Shown: positions 11,972-17,941 of the stretch, piece after piece
Numbering within the stretch: position 1 is the first letter of the stretch
How the letters are laid out: each line of letters opens with the position of its first letter
Assembly: GCA_963848135.1 (NCBI GenBank)
Contig: CAWKCK010000003.1
Span: 186,001-250,000, forward strand
Direction of reading: 5' to 3'
From: an uncultured delta proteobacterium
GTDB taxonomy: Bacteria; Desulfobacterota; Desulfobacteria; Desulfobacterales; SG8-13
DNA length: 64,000 nt
Made by a program: the position numbers and the translations under genes
Notes under the pieces: model-generated
What the model was told of the DNA's origin: nothing
Seen by the model: only the letters and a program-made list of their open reading frames with translations
The model's database searches: none

Positions 11972-12742
11972 ATGAAGAAAATCGTATCATTCATATGTCT
12001 TTTCTTATTTCTTGGGCAATCCCCGACACTGATAGCCGGTGATTTAGGTTTGAATCTTGGCGAACGGGGATGGCCGCTTCCATCGCAAGGTGAAATTGCG
12101 AATACTCCGCCCGGTTCGACCAGTGTCACTAAAATCGCAAAAGCGCTTGAATATTATCAGGAAGATCGACCGAATGGCCGATTGGTTTTTGAATTCCCAC
12201 GTTTTTTCCCGAATCTTTATGTCATGGCCATCCCAGCAGAATTCGAAGGTGCAGACAACACGAACATCAGATTTAATGTTGATGATAAGATCTTTAGCGC
12301 CGGAAGAAAATTTAATTCTCAAATCACCATCAACGAACTTGACCTGACCCTTTATTACGACATTCCACTTGTCAAGACCTTAACGGCCGACACCCTCAAC
12401 ATTGACCTTGGCCTCAATGTCCGCACAATCGATTTCGATGGAAACATCGAGAACGAGCAGCTTGGTAAGGTTTCGAAAAACTTCATTGTCCCGATTCCGA
12501 TGGTTTTTGGTGCGTTACAATTTCACCCCTTAAATGCGCTGGCTCTGGAAGCTGAAGGTCGGGGGATGGCACTCGGCGCCAACAAAGCATTCAGTATTGT
12601 CGGCCGTATCCGTTGGAACGTTCTGGATCACGTTTTTGCTGCTGGCGGATACCGATACGACAAGTTCGATATAGACTACCAAGGCGTGCTTATCGACGCG
12701 GATATCAGCGGCCCGTTTTTCGAGGCCGGTCTCTCATTTTGA
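11972..12742 (+). CDS. Outer-membrane beta-barrel protein (TIGR04219-like)
   Basis: Signal peptide, PNLYVM, ELDLTLYYDIP, IDLGLNVR, GGYRY, C-terminal GPFFEAGLSF ending in Phe. Confidence 0.75.
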   Translation: MKKIVSFICLFLFLGQSPTLIAGDLGLNLGERGWPLPSQGEIANTPPGSTSVTKIAKALEYYQEDRPNGRLVFEFPRFFPNLYVMAIPAEFEGADNTNIRFNVDDKIFSAGRKFNSQITINELDLTLYYDIPLVKTLTADTLNIDLGLNVRTIDFDGNIENEQLGKVSKNFIVPIPMVFGALQFHPLNALALEAEGRGMALGANKAFSIVGRIRWNVLDHVFAAGGYRYDKFDIDYQGVLIDADISGPFFEAGLSF

Positions 12743-12876: not shown

Positions 12877-12918
12877 TTGACACGGCAGCATCTCTTTTGT
12901 ATGGTTCACACCATGAAC
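12877..12918 (+). promoter_or_regulatory. sigma70 promoter with overlapping palindromic operator for the MarR gene
   Basis: TTGACA (12877-12882), 17 bp spacer, TATGGT (12900-12905); palindrome GTTCA-cacca-TGAAC at 12904-12918 covers the ATG at 12913. Confidence 0.65.
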
Positions 12919-13392
12919 AATAATTTGTCCAGCCGCATTCAAGATATCACGCCTTTTCAACTGGAGCAATTTCAAGTCCTCGTGAGTCGCCTGTACCAGT
13001 GCTGCCAGGAGCGCATGCAGTATCAGAGTGACAGGTTTGACCTACCTGATGCCGAGTTGCGTTGCCTCCTGCTATTCGGGAACGAGCGCTACCTGACACC
13101 CAAAGGTATCGCCCAGAAAATGAATGTGGTGAAGAGTCGGATTTCGATTATCATTACCGGTCTCATTAAAAAGGGCTTCGTTCAGCGTATAAAGGATCCG
13201 GAAGATTCTCGTGTGCGACTGCTGAGCCTGACTGCCAAAGGCCAAAAAAAACTTAACGATATAAGACAGTTTATGAACGACGTCCATGAACAGGTGCTGC
13301 TTCAGATCCCGCCCGAACAAAGAAAACTCCTGCTCATCAATCTCGATCTGCTCAAGTCGTCCATGGAAGCGGCAAAAGAACTTATGGTGTAA
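12913..13392 (+). CDS. MarR family transcriptional regulator with vicinal cysteines
   Basis: wHTH pattern LTPKGIAQKMNVVKSRISIIITGLIKKGFVQRIKDPEDSRVRLLSLTAKG; YQCCQER near the N-terminus. Confidence 0.9.
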   Translation: MNNNLSSRIQDITPFQLEQFQVLVSRLYQCCQERMQYQSDRFDLPDAELRCLLLFGNERYLTPKGIAQKMNVVKSRISIIITGLIKKGFVQRIKDPEDSRVRLLSLTAKGQKKLNDIRQFMNDVHEQVLLQIPPEQRKLLLINLDLLKSSMEAAKELMV

Positions 13393-13578
13393 GCCGACAC
13401 GATAGAAACCGGTACACAATTATCACCGACGGATCTGCTTCCGGGAAAAATCCTGCGGGAAAAGGTCTTGACTATGCAGATAATGTTCATGCTATATACC
13501 AAATAATAGAAAAAATGACACAATTAATTGTAATTATACCTTTATTTTATATAACACCATAAACAAATGGAGGACACC

Positions 13579-14166
13579 ATGCAACAAGCCGAAAAAATCA
13601 TCCCGCAAAATGATGTCAGCCTGCAACAAATTGAAGAGCAGCTGGCGGTACTCAAAAGCCGTATCGATATTCTCGATAAAAAAGCGACCGAACCCAAAGT
13701 TTCCATGATCGTCTTCAGCGGCGATCTGGACAAGGTCCTGGCGTCATTTGTGGTCGCTACCGGTGCTGTGGCGATGGGAATGGAAGCGGTGATGTTCTTT
13801 ACATTCTGGGGCACTCCGGTTCTTAGGGACAAAAACAAGGCCGTGGGCGGTAAGGATGTCATGAGCAAGATGTTTGGCACAATGCTACCCAAAGGAACCA
13901 GCGAAGTGAAATTATCGAAGATGAATATGGCCGGCATGGGAACGGCCATGATGAAATCATTGATGAAAAAGAAAAACGTTGCTTCGCTTGAACAGATGCT
14001 GGAGATGGCCGAGGAACTGGGCGTGAAGATATTCGTATGTGAAATGTCCATGGATTTGATGGGCTTTAAACGTGAGGAAATGATCGACTATGAAGGGTTA
14101 ACCTTCTGCGGTGTGGCCAAATTTCTGGAAGAAGCAGGCAACAGCCGCATACAACTGTTTATATAA
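13579..14166 (+). CDS. DsrE2/YrkE-like (DsrE/DsrF/DrsH family) sulfur-transfer protein
   Basis: IVFSGDLDK, AMGMEAVMFFTFWG, LSKMNMAGMG, VKIFVCEMSMDLMG with the conserved Cys; RBS GGAGG at 13569-13573. Confidence 0.88.
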   Translation: MQQAEKIIPQNDVSLQQIEEQLAVLKSRIDILDKKATEPKVSMIVFSGDLDKVLASFVVATGAVAMGMEAVMFFTFWGTPVLRDKNKAVGGKDVMSKMFGTMLPKGTSEVKLSKMNMAGMGTAMMKSLMKKKNVASLEQMLEMAEELGVKIFVCEMSMDLMGFKREEMIDYEGLTFCGVAKFLEEAGNSRIQLFI

Positions 14167-14201
14167 ATCGAATTGAAATCAAAAAATCAGGAGGCGTTAT
14201 T

Positions 14202-14444
14202 ATGAGTGAAGTAATCAAGGCTGACAAAGTAATGGATTTAAAAGGATTGCCCTGCCCCATGCCGGTTGTAAAGGTCAGCAAGGGGATTAAGGAAGTCGAA
14301 ATCGGGCAGGTGATAGAGGCCCATTCGACAGATCCCGGTTCATTGACCGATTTCCCGGCATGGGCCCGAACAAGCGGCAATGAAATCCTGAAAACCGAAC
14401 AAGACGGTAAAATTATCAAGTTTTTCATCAAACGCGTCGCCTAA
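14202..14444 (+). CDS. tusA: TusA-family sulfur carrier
   Basis: DLKGLPCPMPVVK (CPxP motif), STDPGSLTDFPAWARTSGN; 80 aa; RBS AGGAGG. Confidence 0.92.
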   Translation: MSEVIKADKVMDLKGLPCPMPVVKVSKGIKEVEIGQVIEAHSTDPGSLTDFPAWARTSGNEILKTEQDGKIIKFFIKRVA

Positions 14445-14519
14445 TATCTGTCGGGGTGACCGGTATCGCCGAAAGGGAGGACCGGTCCCCCATTTCTGGC
14501 TCACAACAAGGAGGCCGCT

Positions 14520-15230
14520 GTGCAAACCGTCATGTATTTTATTCTGGTACCGATGGTCTACATCGCCTTTGCGGTATTTTTTCTGGGAAGCGTCTATCGC
14601 GTCATTTCGATCTGGCAACAGCCCAAATTGCCCTCTACCCAACAAATCTATCCTTCCAAAAACCCGAAATGGCTGTGGGCACTATACGATACATTTCTGT
14701 TCCCCACGGTTCTGCGGCACAAACCGCTGCTTTGGCTGTTTCTGATGTCTTTTCATCTCTGCCTGATCCTCCTGTTCATCGGCCACCTGGAACTGATTGC
14801 GGATATCGGTATCTTCCAGATTGTTCCGCATGAAATATTTTTGGGGAATGGTTTCGTTGGGCTGATAATCGCAGTCTGTCTGCTCTTTTTTCTTTTCCGG
14901 CGCTTTATCTCTCCGGTGAAAGATCTGTCGGTTCCAGAAGATTATTATCTCCTGGTTCTGATCTTCTTGATCGTTATTTTCGGCAGCGAAATGGACTGGG
15001 CGCGAAGCTGGTATGAATACGGAGAGATGACGGTAGAAGATTATCGCACCTATATGTTCAGCCTGCTGATTTTCAAGCCGGAATTGCCTTACAGCACAAC
15101 CTTTTCCGGCCATTCCTTCATGCTTGTTCTGCACGTATTCTTCGCCAATCTGTTTTTAATCGTCTTTCCTTTTAGCCAACTGATGCATTCAATTCTGTCA
15201 CTCCCTATGAACAAACTGAGAAGAGGTTGA
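14520..15230 (+). CDS. NarI/DsrM/HdrE-like membrane diheme cytochrome b
   Basis: About 5 TM helices with two His pairs: SFHLCLILLFIGH and LHVFFANLFLIVFPFSQLMH; GTG start after GGAGG. Confidence 0.85.
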   Translation: MQTVMYFILVPMVYIAFAVFFLGSVYRVISIWQQPKLPSTQQIYPSKNPKWLWALYDTFLFPTVLRHKPLLWLFLMSFHLCLILLFIGHLELIADIGIFQIVPHEIFLGNGFVGLIIAVCLLFFLFRRFISPVKDLSVPEDYYLLVLIFLIVIFGSEMDWARSWYEYGEMTVEDYRTYMFSLLIFKPELPYSTTFSGHSFMLVLHVFFANLFLIVFPFSQLMHSILSLPMNKLRRG

Positions 15231-16513
15231 TTAAAATGGACAGCAAGACCCAAGCGGAACTGCTGAAACTCTTTCGCAGCAAAATCACCCGGACGATGAC
15301 TTATTATCTGGAAACCTGCACCCGCTGCGGAACATGTACCGACGCCTGCCACGCTTATGCATCGACAGGGCATACCAAATACATCGCCGCTTACCGCCAC
15401 GAGATCGTGCGACGATTATACAAAAAATATTTTAAGACCCGCGGAAAATTCTGGCCTTCGGTAGGAGAGGCGAAAGAGCTCAACGACATGGCCATCGAAG
15501 AGCTTTATGAGGCGGCGTATTCCTGCACGGGTTGCCGGCGCTGCATGGTGTATTGCCCTTTCGGTATCGATACCCAAATGCTCATGTCCATTGCCAAGCT
15601 GCTGTTGATCGGTGCCGATGCCGAACCGGAAATACTAACCTTGTTGGCCGATACCTCTGTTGAAAAAGGTAAATCGTTTGAGTTCTACAAAGAAAACTTT
15701 CTTACCGGGATCAAGCATCTGGAAGAGGACGTCGTGGAGAAATGGCGCACGCAAGCCGGCAAATCTGCCATTCCGGTGGATGTGGAAGGGGCCGACCTTC
15801 TCTACGTGGCCTTGGCTGGCGCCCATTCCATTATTCCGGCCGCAGCGATCTTCAATGCTGCCGATGAGAACTGGACCCTGAGTTTTTTTGAAGCGGTCAA
15901 TTTCGGCGCCTTCGTGGGTGACCCGACCAAGACCCAGTTGATCCTCGATCGCATCGTCAACGAAGCCCGCCGACTCAAGGTCAAGGAAGTCTGTGTCTGT
16001 GAATGCGGTACAGCTTTCAGGATCATGAAGCAGCTCGCCGGCAAGCAGCCTTTCAAGGTATCCGCCATCACCGAAGTTCACGCCCGTTACCTGCGTGAGG
16101 GCCGTATCAAAGTCGACAAAACCATGTTCACGGAACCGGTGACCTATCACGACCCCTGCCAGATTGCCCGAAACGCCGGGGTGAGCGATGAGCCCCGCTA
16201 TATTTTGCGGCAGTTGACCAACAATTTCAGGGAAATGACCACAGAGCCCCGTTACAACTGGTGCTGCGGCGGGGGCGGCGGACTGGTGGCCCTGGGTGAG
16301 GAAACGCTCGACTTTCGCATGAAATCGGCCAAGGTCAAAGTCGACCAGGTCAAAGCCTCCGGTGCCGCAATTTTATCTACCGCCTGTGAGAATTGCCACA
16401 CCCAACTCAGCAATCTCAACGACCATTATAAAATGGGTGTTCGCGTGGAATTCCTCTCCTCGATGGTTGCCGACGCGCTGATCGGTGCCGGCAAGGAGGC
16501 CGCGTCATCGTAA
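15227..16513 (+). CDS. DsrK/TmcB/HmcF/HdrD-like CCG-domain iron-sulfur protein
   Basis: Two ferredoxin motifs (CTRCGTCTDAC, CTGCRRCMVYCPFGID), CECG, TYHDPC, NWCCGGGGG and TACENC; overlaps the stop of the cytochrome b gene. Confidence 0.88.
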   Translation: MIKMDSKTQAELLKLFRSKITRTMTYYLETCTRCGTCTDACHAYASTGHTKYIAAYRHEIVRRLYKKYFKTRGKFWPSVGEAKELNDMAIEELYEAAYSCTGCRRCMVYCPFGIDTQMLMSIAKLLLIGADAEPEILTLLADTSVEKGKSFEFYKENFLTGIKHLEEDVVEKWRTQAGKSAIPVDVEGADLLYVALAGAHSIIPAAAIFNAADENWTLSFFEAVNFGAFVGDPTKTQLILDRIVNEARRLKVKEVCVCECGTAFRIMKQLAGKQPFKVSAITEVHARYLREGRIKVDKTMFTEPVTYHDPCQIARNAGVSDEPRYILRQLTNNFREMTTEPRYNWCCGGGGGLVALGEETLDFRMKSAKVKVDQVKASGAAILSTACENCHTQLSNLNDHYKMGVRVEFLSSMVADALIGAGKEAASS

Positions 16514-16634
16514 GAATCTGGTCGTATTTCAACCTGGAAGCATTGGCATTGAATTCTTCAGCAAAGGAGGTGCACACACGTTTTTCAGACTGGCAATCTA
16601 AAGACAAACAAGACATCGTAAAATGGAGGAGATG

Positions 16635-17906
16635 ATGAGAAAGACATTTGCCGTTCTGTTTATTTTTTCAGTTGTACTGGTTCTGGGGCCCGCCGCACAT
16701 GCCACCAACGGCGACAATCTGATCGGTGTCGGTCCGATTTCCCGCGCCATGGGTGGTGCCGGGGTTGCCGCCCCTCAAGATGCAACCAGCGCGATCTTCG
16801 CCAACCCGGCGGCCATGTGTTTTGGACCCTACTGCCCGGGCTCATCCGTCGATTTTGCCGGTACGGTATTTGTACCATCTGTCAAGGGCGATGTGAATTA
16901 CGGCCTGCCCGGATTTTCCGGCAGCGCCGACAGCAAACTGCCGCCCTCCGTGATTCCGGCCATCGCCGTCACAATGCCCATCAACGAAAAGTGGCGCTTC
17001 GGTGCCGGCATGTATGGCGTTTCCGGTTTGGGCGTTGACTACAAAAACACGAATATCGACTTTTCGCTGATGCCACTGCCGTCTCCACCAGCGCCGCCGG
17101 GGGCTTCCTTTTCAGCGGTTTACACCCAACTGCAGGTGCTCAAAATGGCTCCGAACCTGGCCTATTTGATTACCCCGAATTTTTCGGTCGGCGCCTCATT
17201 CGAGATCGTCTGGCAGAGCCTCGACCTGGGAGAGGGTGCTTCCCCGGGTTACACCGTAGGGCTACAGCTGGGCGCCCTCTACCATTGGGACAAATTCAAC
17301 TTCGGCTTCTCATTCACCACCCCGGAAAAGGTCAACCACAAGAACGTATCCAAATTCGGGAATCCCGCCGGCGAATATCAGGATCTGAAGCTGGAAGCCC
17401 CGTGGAGGGTCCAAGGCGGGATTTCCTTCGAACCCAACAGCCAATGGCTCTTCGAAGGTTATGCCCGTTGGCTCGGCTGGAGCAGTGCCGATGGTTACAA
17501 GGATTTTGACTGGGAAGATCAATGGGTCTTCGGCCTGGGAGCCCAATGGAAACCGGCCGAAAAGTGGGCCCTGCGTCTCGGTTACAACTACGGCAAAAGC
17601 CCGGTCAAGGTTCACAACGGGTGGAACCCCAACCCGTTCGATCCGACCAACACCGTCGATGTTCAAGGTACGCCCGTCAACCGTGTCGGCTATGAAACCC
17701 TTCGCATCATCGGGTTTCCAGCAATTGTGGAACACCACATCACCGGCGGTGTCGGTTTTAAAATTACCGACAGCCTCGCCTTGAACCTGTCATTAATGTA
17801 TGCGCCGCAACAAACCATTAAAGAAACATCGGCCTTCAACGCCATTACGCTCGAATCGAAACTGAGCGAATGGAGCACCACCCTGGGTCTCACCTGGTAT
17901 TTCTAA
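16635..17906 (+). CDS. FadL/OmpP1/TodX-family outer-membrane channel
   Basis: Signal peptide AHA|TNG, SRAMGGAGVA, NPA motif (IFANPAAM), GLGVDY, amphipathic strands, terminal WYF. Confidence 0.88.
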   Translation: MRKTFAVLFIFSVVLVLGPAAHATNGDNLIGVGPISRAMGGAGVAAPQDATSAIFANPAAMCFGPYCPGSSVDFAGTVFVPSVKGDVNYGLPGFSGSADSKLPPSVIPAIAVTMPINEKWRFGAGMYGVSGLGVDYKNTNIDFSLMPLPSPPAPPGASFSAVYTQLQVLKMAPNLAYLITPNFSVGASFEIVWQSLDLGEGASPGYTVGLQLGALYHWDKFNFGFSFTTPEKVNHKNVSKFGNPAGEYQDLKLEAPWRVQGGISFEPNSQWLFEGYARWLGWSSADGYKDFDWEDQWVFGLGAQWKPAEKWALRLGYNYGKSPVKVHNGWNPNPFDPTNTVDVQGTPVNRVGYETLRIIGFPAIVEHHITGGVGFKITDSLALNLSLMYAPQQTIKETSAFNAITLESKLSEWSTTLGLTWYF

Positions 17907-17912
17907 AAGCAA

Positions 17913-17941
17913 ACGGGGGAATGGAAAATCCATTCCCCCGT
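17913..17941. terminator. Perfect 13-bp stem-loop between the convergent FadL and pomB genes
   Basis: ACGGGGGAATGGA-aaa-TCCATTCCCCCGT. Confidence 0.75.

Follow-up and report, generated by a model that had tools for sequence, protein, structure and literature searches.

A 64,000-nucleotide stretch of DNA from an uncultured delta proteobacterium (contig CAWKCK010000003.1, positions 186,001 to 250,000; hereafter the window) carries at 12877-17941 six open reading frames (ORFs), all on the + strand and at the positions named beforehand, that encode a MarR-family regulator, the sulfur carriers DsrE2 and TusA, a NarI-type cytochrome b, a DsrK-like iron-sulfur protein with a CCG motif (the CCG protein) and an outer-membrane channel of the FadL family. 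The first five of these genes form a unit, strongly conserved among sediment-dwelling relatives of sulfate reducers, to which fadL is an optional sixth, and their cytochrome b/CCG pair stands alone as a fourth paralogue, distinct from canonical DsrMK, TmcCB and HmcEF. Because two sulfur carriers are joined here to a quinone-linked enzyme of the disulfide-reductase type under a cysteine-bearing repressor, the operon probably processes carrier-bound sulfur. More specifically, we see about an even chance that the five-gene operon, with its optional fadL, encodes a menaquinone-linked enzyme of the HdrDE/DsrMK type that would reduce sulfane sulfur borne by TusA and DsrE2 to sulfide, under the control of MarR.

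Five conserved genes and an optional sixth

A first-pass annotation of this DNA had read the region as a single six-gene operon for the import, carriage and reduction of sulfane sulfur, and all six of its family calls are backed by Pfam scores above the respective cut-offs (Table 1). We scanned one genome per species for the unit, which gave 71 loci, almost all of them in metagenome-assembled genomes (MAGs) of Desulfobacterales type, and counted synteny at those loci with enough flanking sequence. For the core, the gene-neighbourhood comparison that the annotation had suggested bears out the proposed arrangement: the CCG orthologue is adjoined by cytochrome b in 59/59 loci, by DsrE2 in 54/54 and by TusA in 54/56. 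Orthologues of the regulator, with 41-96% identity, stand directly 5' of dsrE2 in 53 of the 57 dsrE2-bearing loci; three of the four misses have less than 330 nt of upstream sequence, and where the upstream sequence suffices MarR is present in 53/54. The remaining locus, L036, has sigma-54 activator genes in its place. For the CCG protein, identity is 75-95% over many genera and dozens of species-level genomes, and the link between the core genes persists at 56-63% identity in five further loci, one of which is ordered DsrE2, cytochrome b, TusA, CCG. At 52% identity, only the cytochrome b and CCG genes stay together.

The same comparison failed for fadL, which the annotation had treated as integral to the unit: it adjoins the CCG gene in only 27/56 loci. 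Moreover, when five genomes that have the core but no neighbouring fadL were searched with the window protein, none returned a FadL match at E 1e-20; this search ran without a positive control of its own, and the window genome matches the protein once in a separate search. On the orthologue tree, FadL adjacency takes at least eight changes, four of them forced by well-supported branches, and this neighbourhood is therefore recurrent yet often lost or gained. FadL is an accessory partner, not an integral one. The protein itself belongs to the FadL/TodX family by its Toluene_X domain, and its structural model (predicted local distance difference test, pLDDT, 78.8) has TodX (E 3.8e-23), FadL, TbuX and CymD as top fold matches, with template-modelling (TM) scores of 0.6-0.7 (0.69-0.70 for FadL); sequence identity to the solved members is 14-19%. 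Of the hatch residues, N61 and P62 do not vary, and at least 90% of the sequences have A63. The window protein thus resembles the FadL, TodX and TbuX channels in barrel fold (TM 0.65-0.70) and in its N-P-A hatch, whereas its gene is tied to sulfur carriers and not to genes for fatty-acid or aromatic degradation. A FadL homologue as a mover of sulfur chains is, in the text consulted, only speculated upon, for CT2230 of Chlorobaculum (bioRxiv 10.1101/172254).

In the loci that lack fadL, the next gene is mostly convergent (a TPR protein and DUF2752). A same-strand ORF of 95-106 aa without a Pfam match follows the CCG gene at five such loci, L007 (6355-6675), L009 (7317-7604), L010 (1442-1729), L030 (7521-7808) and L031 (7456-7758), and in L083 (10271-12010), one of the five more distant loci, fadL is divergent and followed by a thioredoxin-like gene.

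The distribution of the unit is patchy. A sample of 400 other genomes from the phylum contains 22 with the orthologue at 52% identity or more, and the next best matches reach at most 38%. The orthologue occurs in 10/15 other genomes of the genus, in 1/3 genomes from the family's other genera and in 3/12 genomes from the order's other families. When 1.84 billion representative proteins were searched, the orthologues amounted to about one 50%-identity cluster (P0001, 78%), with the next full-length matches at 45% and 40%. Two symbionts of gutless worms, Olavius Delta 1 and Delta 4, carry the orthologue as well.

The cytochrome b/CCG pair and its carriers

The window genome encodes the canonical members of this enzyme superfamily elsewhere, namely DsrMKJO (DsrK 719 bits, DsrM 508 bits), TmcDCBA (TmcB 849) and HmcEF (HmcF 919), and the window CCG protein is 28-30% identical to its DsrK, TmcB and HmcF. 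In a quick maximum-likelihood tree of 54 rows, on which the separation of the clades rests, the window clade comprises 17 rows and has a support of 100 in the Shimodaira-Hasegawa-like approximate likelihood ratio test (SH-aLRT); the 18 rows of DsrK, across a branch with support 99, and the 11 rows of Tmc/Hmc form clades apart from it. The phylogeny that the first-pass annotation had called for hence returns a clade of its own, and this, together with the low identity and the presence of DsrMKJO elsewhere in the genome, upholds the annotation's statement that the unit is not a canonical DsrMKJOP complex. DsrJ, DsrO and DsrP were not found among the six ORFs or their flanks; in this genome, DsrJ and DsrO accompany the canonical DsrMK. 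The window unit has no cytochrome c gene of the kind that partners TmcB and HmcF either, nor a gene for TmcD.

Profile scores agree with this placement. The CCG protein stays below the cut-offs of DsrK (NF045796, 267.3 of 400 bits), TmcB (NF045724, 218.5 of 735) and HmcF (NF045711, 206.7 of 750), and the cytochrome b reaches 55 bits with TmcC and 34.6 bits with DsrM (DsrM cut-off 300), both far under the cut-offs; in length and score, it is nearest to TmcC. Six of its histidines (H79, H89, H104, H198, H205 and H223) are kept in 59/59 sequences and are candidate haem ligands, in keeping with the NarI family. Besides two 4Fe-4S motifs and a single full CCG motif, the CCG protein carries a CVCECG motif, and all of its 16 cysteines are invariant in 62-63 orthologues, among them C31/34/37/41 and C100/103/106/110 of the 4Fe-4S motifs and C311/346/347/387/390 of the CCG motif, as is characteristic of the superfamily. 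An alignment of 48 sequences, DsrK, TmcB and HmcF among them, shows no exception to C260-G261 of the ECG motif, which reads CECGT in the window protein. In DsrK, the cysteine of this motif is described as probably essential to the reduction of di- and trisulfides (Barbosa et al. 2024, PMC10861901). A natural fusion of the two subunits, NarI-CCG, exists in P0003.

Like DsrMK(JOP) with DsrC, the window unit combines a NarI-type cytochrome b, two 4Fe-4S motifs, one CCG motif, an ECG cysteine and a small cysteine-bearing carrier as the presumed substrate. The two differ in that TusA and DsrE2 of the window have one conserved cysteine each, whereas DsrC has two, in that DsrK reads GECGH where the window protein reads CVCECGT, and in that the window unit has no DsrJOP. 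The position of the carriers in related loci is instructive: at two of the three paralogue loci examined, L087 (4861-5208) and L089 (852-1169), both at about 36% identity, a DsrC-like gene directly precedes the cytochrome b/CCG pair, and P0009 is a natural fusion in which a CCG protein has a C-terminal DsrC domain. Since in this superfamily the small co-encoded carrier is the known or presumed substrate, and since in the window clade that slot is taken by DsrE2 and TusA, the two carriers are supported as the presumed substrate. The proposal of the first-pass annotation that TusA would work in place of DsrC finds its strongest comparative support here. Three further CCG paralogues in the genome (C2:79817-80830, C18:824606-825562 and C18:786732-787754) contain one in-frame TGA each, possibly a selenocysteine codon.

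We modelled the CCG protein with AlphaFold2 (AF2; pLDDT 90.8) and obtained fold matches to EtfD, LutA and HdrB, the best being the electron-transfer protein EtfD. A sequence search of solved structures returned no DsrK-type entry, and EtfD was the only match over the CCG domain. This could mean that cytochrome b and the CCG protein serve general electron transfer, as EtfD does, and have nothing to do with sulfur, or else that the carriers traffic selenium, as the best NCBIfam match of TusA is the YedF selenium-metabolism model. We consider either variant extremely unlikely. The YedF score, at 50 bits, lies under the cut-off of 79, and the genome gave no YedE match; the window protein and its orthologues keep the ECG cysteine and the complete CCG motif of DsrK, and it is DsrC-type carriers that accompany the nearest paralogues.

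Both carriers score over their Pfam cut-offs and fall short of the equivalog models: the DsrE2-type protein scores 89 bits with NF047629 of NCBIfam (cut-off 210), and TusA is under the cut-offs of both the TusA and the YedF models. Residues 43-199 of DsrE2 match the solved chain 3pnx (E 1e-29). Its Cys158 is kept in 57/57 orthologues and a second cysteine in 28/57, so that the window DsrE2 has one strictly conserved cysteine and not the two of DsrE2A of Allochromatium, a membrane protein with two transmembrane helices; for Desulfobacterota, the consulted text of PMC12998232 does not report a two-helix DsrE. TusA has the motif C18-P-M-P, in which C18, P19 and P21 are invariant (Cys18 in 57/57), and a mean column identity of 84% over 46 sequences. 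A search for YedE/YeeE (PF04143) across the entire genome (98.65% complete) returned nothing. The annotation had stated that the unit has no YedE transporter and is not a cluster of the YedE-TusA-DsrE type; leaving aside its claim on TauE, both statements hold genome-wide.

The conservation of the carriers could also reflect a housekeeping relay, in which TusA, the single TusA-family protein of the genome, supplies sulfur for tRNA thiolation, molybdenum cofactor or Fe-S assembly, and the enzyme re-reduces carriers that have become disulfide-linked. The very high conservation of both carriers agrees with such a role, as does a 'DsrE' of Desulfococcus multivorans that is reported as constitutive and abundant (PMC5109826) and whose orthology to the window DsrE2 is unconfirmed. 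A housekeeping function should however be universal, whereas the orthologue is patchy even within the genus, and a dedicated repressor argues for conditional use. We therefore regard a housekeeping relay as very unlikely.

Regulator, predicted operator and transcription

The regulator has a winged-helix domain above the MarR cut-off and, in line with the family, a conserved inverted repeat at the start of its own gene. This repeat, GTTCA-N5-TGAAC, is the sole perfect site within the window, and is found in exact form at the marR start in the window and in 19 of the 53 related loci; in shuffled versions of all 54 regions (the 53 loci and the window), such repeats averaged 0.25 and never exceeded 2. 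We predict that it is likely the MarR operator. At 1.04 versus 0.34 per locus, half-sites show an enrichment of about 3-fold in the spacer between marR and dsrE2, and L030, L050 and L065 have perfect second copies at -84 to -103 of dsrE2. The second copy of the window is weak when taken alone, as the window contains 22 sites with two mismatches where 29 are expected. Of the recurring operator-like motif that the first-pass annotation had noted, the recurrence is real; the motif itself had to be redefined as GTTCA-N5-TGAAC, with a degenerate second copy in the window. Another palindrome, ACAATTAATTGT at 13519-13530 (perfect over 12 bp, 47 nt before dsrE2), was rejected as an operator, being present in 0/53 related loci.

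The vicinal cysteines Cys30 and Cys31 of MarR are kept in 53/53 orthologues and Cys51 in 51/53. In L081 (4031-4363), another of the five more distant loci, a gene for an ArsR-type regulator (HTH_5) takes the place of marR directly 5' of dsrE2.

A thiol-bearing repressor with invariant cysteines at the head of the unit invites the question of whether the same biochemistry is protective, i.e. a response to stress by sulfane sulfur (persulfide or polysulfide) in which MarR senses, the carriers scavenge and the enzyme disposes of the sulfur as sulfide, without any part in energy conservation and with fadL as a chance neighbour. ArsR-family persulfide sensors are known, and the replacement in L081 would fit a stress response, as would the dispensability of FadL and the presence of the operon irrespective of a DsrA match in the host. 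On the other hand, a quinone-linked, two-subunit membrane enzyme would make an elaborate detoxifier, the high identity of the CCG protein across many genera suggests a core function, and the adjacency of fadL recurs across the tree, divergent in L083. We consider a purely protective role rather unlikely.

The genes of the unit are separated by gaps of 174 nt (marR-dsrE2), 35 nt (dsrE2-tusA), 75 nt (tusA-cytochrome b) and 109 nt (CCG-fadL), while the cytochrome b and CCG genes share 4 nt (15227-15230); the same-strand arrangement with short gaps and the overlap had both been described correctly by the first-pass annotation. Its start codon for marR needs to be revised: the TTG at 12877 falls on the -35 hexamer of a promoter-like site, and the in-frame ATG at 12913 fits the MarR orthologues. 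This site, TTGACA-17-TATGGT, is the best of its kind in the region by consensus match only, six such sites having been found where 4.9 are expected. For dsrE2 and fadL, the likely starts are suggested by GGAGG boxes (Table 1).

Table 1. Features of the operon region, in window coordinates
Feature	Position	Strand	Remarks
Promoter-like site TTGACA-17 nt-TATGGT	12877..12905	+	Before marR; 10/12 consensus matches
marR	12877-13392 as listed; ATG-start version 12913..13392	+	159 aa from ATG; PF01047 39 bits (cut-off 24.6)
Inverted repeat GTTCACACCATGAAC	12904..12918	.	Exact GTTCA-N5-TGAAC; overlaps -10 box and marR ATG
Degenerate second repeat GTTCATGCTATATAC	13485..13499	.	2 mismatches; 82 nt before dsrE2
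dsrE2	13567-14166; likely start 13579	+	DrsE_2 (PF13686) 175.6 bits (cut-off 25)
tusA	14202-14444	+	80 aa; PF01206 72.8 bits (cut-off 28.6)
Cytochrome b gene	14520-15230	+	NarI/DsrM/TmcC-type; 236 aa; Nitrate_red_gam (PF02665) 49.4 bits (cut-off 22.9)
CCG gene	15227-16513	+	DsrK-like iron-sulfur protein; 428 aa; Fer4_8 49.6 bits, CCG 48.2 bits (Pfam)
fadL	16623-17906; likely start 16632 or 16635	+	Toluene_X (PF03349) 85.5 bits (cut-off 29.7)
Stem-loop	17913..17941	.	13-bp stem between convergent fadL and motB

The unit is flanked on its 5' side by livGF-type ABC genes and a gene for an outer-membrane protein, and on its 3' side by the convergent motB and motA. The outer-membrane protein is a beta-barrel of the TIGR04219 family (11972-12742, + strand, directly 5' of marR; 113.8 bits against a cut-off of 105), and its gene holds this position also in the closer relatives L001-L003, L005, L014, L017-L019 and L062.

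The strong hairpin between fadL and motB is real, with a folding energy of -24.9 kcal/mol and a z of -5.67 (0/200 shuffles fold equally well), as the first-pass annotation had said; its claim that this hairpin closes the unit is less certain. Since the + strand has no T run, and GTTTGCTTTT follows the stem when the - strand is read, the structure may equally end the convergent motB. A simple terminator scan found no terminator between the CCG gene and fadL, with an overall total of 5 sites against 7.4 in shuffles, and the 121-nt CCG-fadL spacer has no stable fold (z +1.58); these results neither prove nor exclude the co-transcription of the two genes. Contigs from metatranscriptomes (two runs of one study) match parts of marR, dsrE2, tusA, the CCG gene and fadL, and those parts without coverage carry no meaning. 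One such contig, 14034-14398, spans the junction of dsrE2 and tusA and, given its 11 differences, comes from a relative. We regard this as weak evidence, because RNA libraries of this kind may contain DNA.

Sulfur chemistry and the closest known systems

If the operon reduces carrier-borne sulfane sulfur, as we favour, TusA and DsrE2 would pick up the sulfur and form either a persulfide or a TusA-S(n)-DsrE2 bridge, which would play the role of the DsrC trisulfide. The di-haem cytochrome b would exchange electrons with menaquinone, and the cytoplasmic CCG iron-sulfur subunit would act on the thiol, persulfide or polysulfide borne by Cys18 of TusA or Cys158 of DsrE2, not on DsrC, so that with menaquinol as the reductant the carrier sulfur would leave as sulfide and the carrier thiols would be restored. 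MarR is expected to bind GTTCA-N5-TGAAC at its own promoter and before dsrE2, and would probably leave the DNA once Cys30-Cys31 and Cys51 are oxidised or modified by sulfane sulfur. Where fadL is present, its product probably passes hydrophobic sulfur (S8 or an organic polysulfane) over the outer membrane. We infer the substrate, the direction, the contact between carriers and enzyme, the sensing chemistry and the role of FadL from gene content and precedent; the synteny, the clade, the conserved residues, the exchange of carriers, the sulfur context, the cysteines of MarR and the operator repeat all count for this reading.

Several observations weigh against it. The best fold match of the CCG protein is EtfD, and CCG proteins are not all disulfide reductases. 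TusA may serve general sulfur trafficking, because it is the sole TusA-family match in the window genome (G000), which has one DsrC. FadL does not adjoin the core in about half of the loci and has no match in the five core-bearing genomes searched, and among the RNA-library contigs, which are fragments only, none spans the region from the CCG stop to fadL, the fadL pieces starting at 16552 and 16571. Finally, DsrA was found over the cut-off in 16 of the 22 host genomes that carry the orthologue and was not found over the cut-off in the other six (G138, G286, G328, G276, G399 and G360), two of which are rated 100% complete; the role of the operon is therefore not tied to sulfite reduction.

The enzyme might instead work in the oxidative direction, with carrier sulfur being oxidised or condensed and the electrons passed to menaquinone, and so feed sulfur oxidation or disproportionation, comparable to the DsrMKJOP of sulfur oxidisers. 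Four loci, L016 (5483-8166), L025 (1258-2403), L061 (7493-10177) and L063 (7350-10035), have a same-strand rhodanese-metallo-beta-lactamase gene after the CCG gene, followed in L016, L061 and L063 by ATP sulfurylase, and such downstream genes would suit an oxidative pathway. TusA and DsrE-family proteins are moreover described as feeding oxidative pathways in sulfur oxidisers (PMC13293266, PMC4175335). However, the unit encodes no partner that would take the sulfur on to sulfite, DsrAB works on DsrC and not on TusA, and six hosts are without a DsrA match, so that we hold oxidation to be quite improbable. The rhodanese-metallo-beta-lactamase fusion of the four loci resembles persulfide dioxygenase.

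The nearest oxidative parallels are the rhd-tusA-dsrE2 genes of Allochromatium vinosum and the dsrE3A-dsrE2B-tusA genes of Metallosphaera by sHdr, which, like the window, link TusA and DsrE2 to a system of the Dsr/Hdr type (PMC4175335). These sulfur oxidisers use soluble sHdr or the DsrEFH/DsrC route, whereas the window unit has a membrane-bound DsrMK-like pair and no rhodanese, and most of its host genomes carry reductive dsrA (16/22).

A related possibility is that the carriers bear a thiosulfonate, from which the enzyme would reductively free sulfite and sulfide in a cytoplasmic route for thiosulfate or tetrathionate. DsrE3A and TusA of Metallosphaera cuprina carry thiosulfate (PMC4175335), DsrE-like proteins of Desulfurella amilsii rise on thiosulfate (PMC6378623), and a relative at 52% identity, L086, has a gene of the TauE/SafE sulfite-exporter family upstream. 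We nevertheless judge a thiosulfonate route to be highly improbable, as TusA of cable bacteria is reported to be unreactive with thiosulfate (PMC13293266), the window unit encodes no anion transporter, and a FadL channel suits hydrophobic solutes and not anions.

Among Desulfobacterota, the YTD cluster (YedE-TusA-DsrEFH type II) also combines TusA with DsrE-family proteins and has been discussed in connection with the disproportionation and oxidation of sulfur (PMC12998232, PMC13293266). Unlike that cluster, the window unit lacks DsrF- and DsrH-like genes, its genome has no YedE/YeeE, and a redox enzyme takes the place of the transporter. In the Tmc and Hmc complexes, the CCG subunit is of the same superfamily, and it is the absence of cytochrome c and TmcD genes, together with the low TmcB and HmcF scores, that sets the window unit apart.

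HdrDE of Methanosarcina shares the two-subunit layout of the window enzyme, a membrane cytochrome b and a CCG subunit without a periplasmic module, and acts as an oxidoreductase between a quinone-like carrier and a disulfide. Its substrate is a small-molecule heterodisulfide and its carrier methanophenazine, whereas the window enzyme is co-encoded with protein carriers and has one complete CCG motif.

The literature offers partial precedents for the reduction of carrier-borne sulfur. In Desulfurella amilsii, DsrE-like proteins encoded in a dsrMK operon rise during thiosulfate reduction (PMC6378623), and a DsrE-Npsr-TusA fusion has been proposed to serve intracellular sulfur reduction (PMC7887784). 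Extra copies consisting of dsrMK only have been noted in Deltaproteobacteria (PMC10504309), and a divergent Tmc without TmcA has been described for Seep-SRB1a/g (PMC10553843); the latter may correspond to the window pair. A full-text search, with key reviews and supplements outside its scope and prior notice thus possible, returned no description of a DsrE2-TusA-DsrMK-like operon.

A more far-reaching version of the favoured reading would give many sediment bacteria of Desulfobacterales type a dedicated route for zero-valent sulfur, inducible and linked to energy metabolism, in which neither DsrAB nor DsrC takes part. S8 or polysulfane would enter through a specialised FadL, pass the inner membrane with no transporter and be caught as a TusA-S(n)-DsrE2 bridge, the two-protein counterpart of the DsrC trisulfide; the window pair, as a fourth and so far unnamed quinol oxidoreductase of the DsrMK type, would turn this bridge over, and a MarR sensing sulfane sulfur by its vicinal cysteines would be the switch; as a complete scheme, we think this unlikely.

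How sulfate reducers and their relatives handle S0, polysulfide and persulfides in the cell bears on the cryptic sulfur cycle of sediments and on the debated markers of sulfur disproportionation and oxidation (PMC12998232, PMC13293266). The operon described here is a compact enzyme co-encoded with its presumed protein substrates and its regulator, which makes it a testable candidate, and the predicted GTTCA-N5-TGAAC operator offers a handle for finding the inducer. If the favoured reading is true, the DsrK/TmcB/HmcF family would gain a member whose partner is not DsrC.

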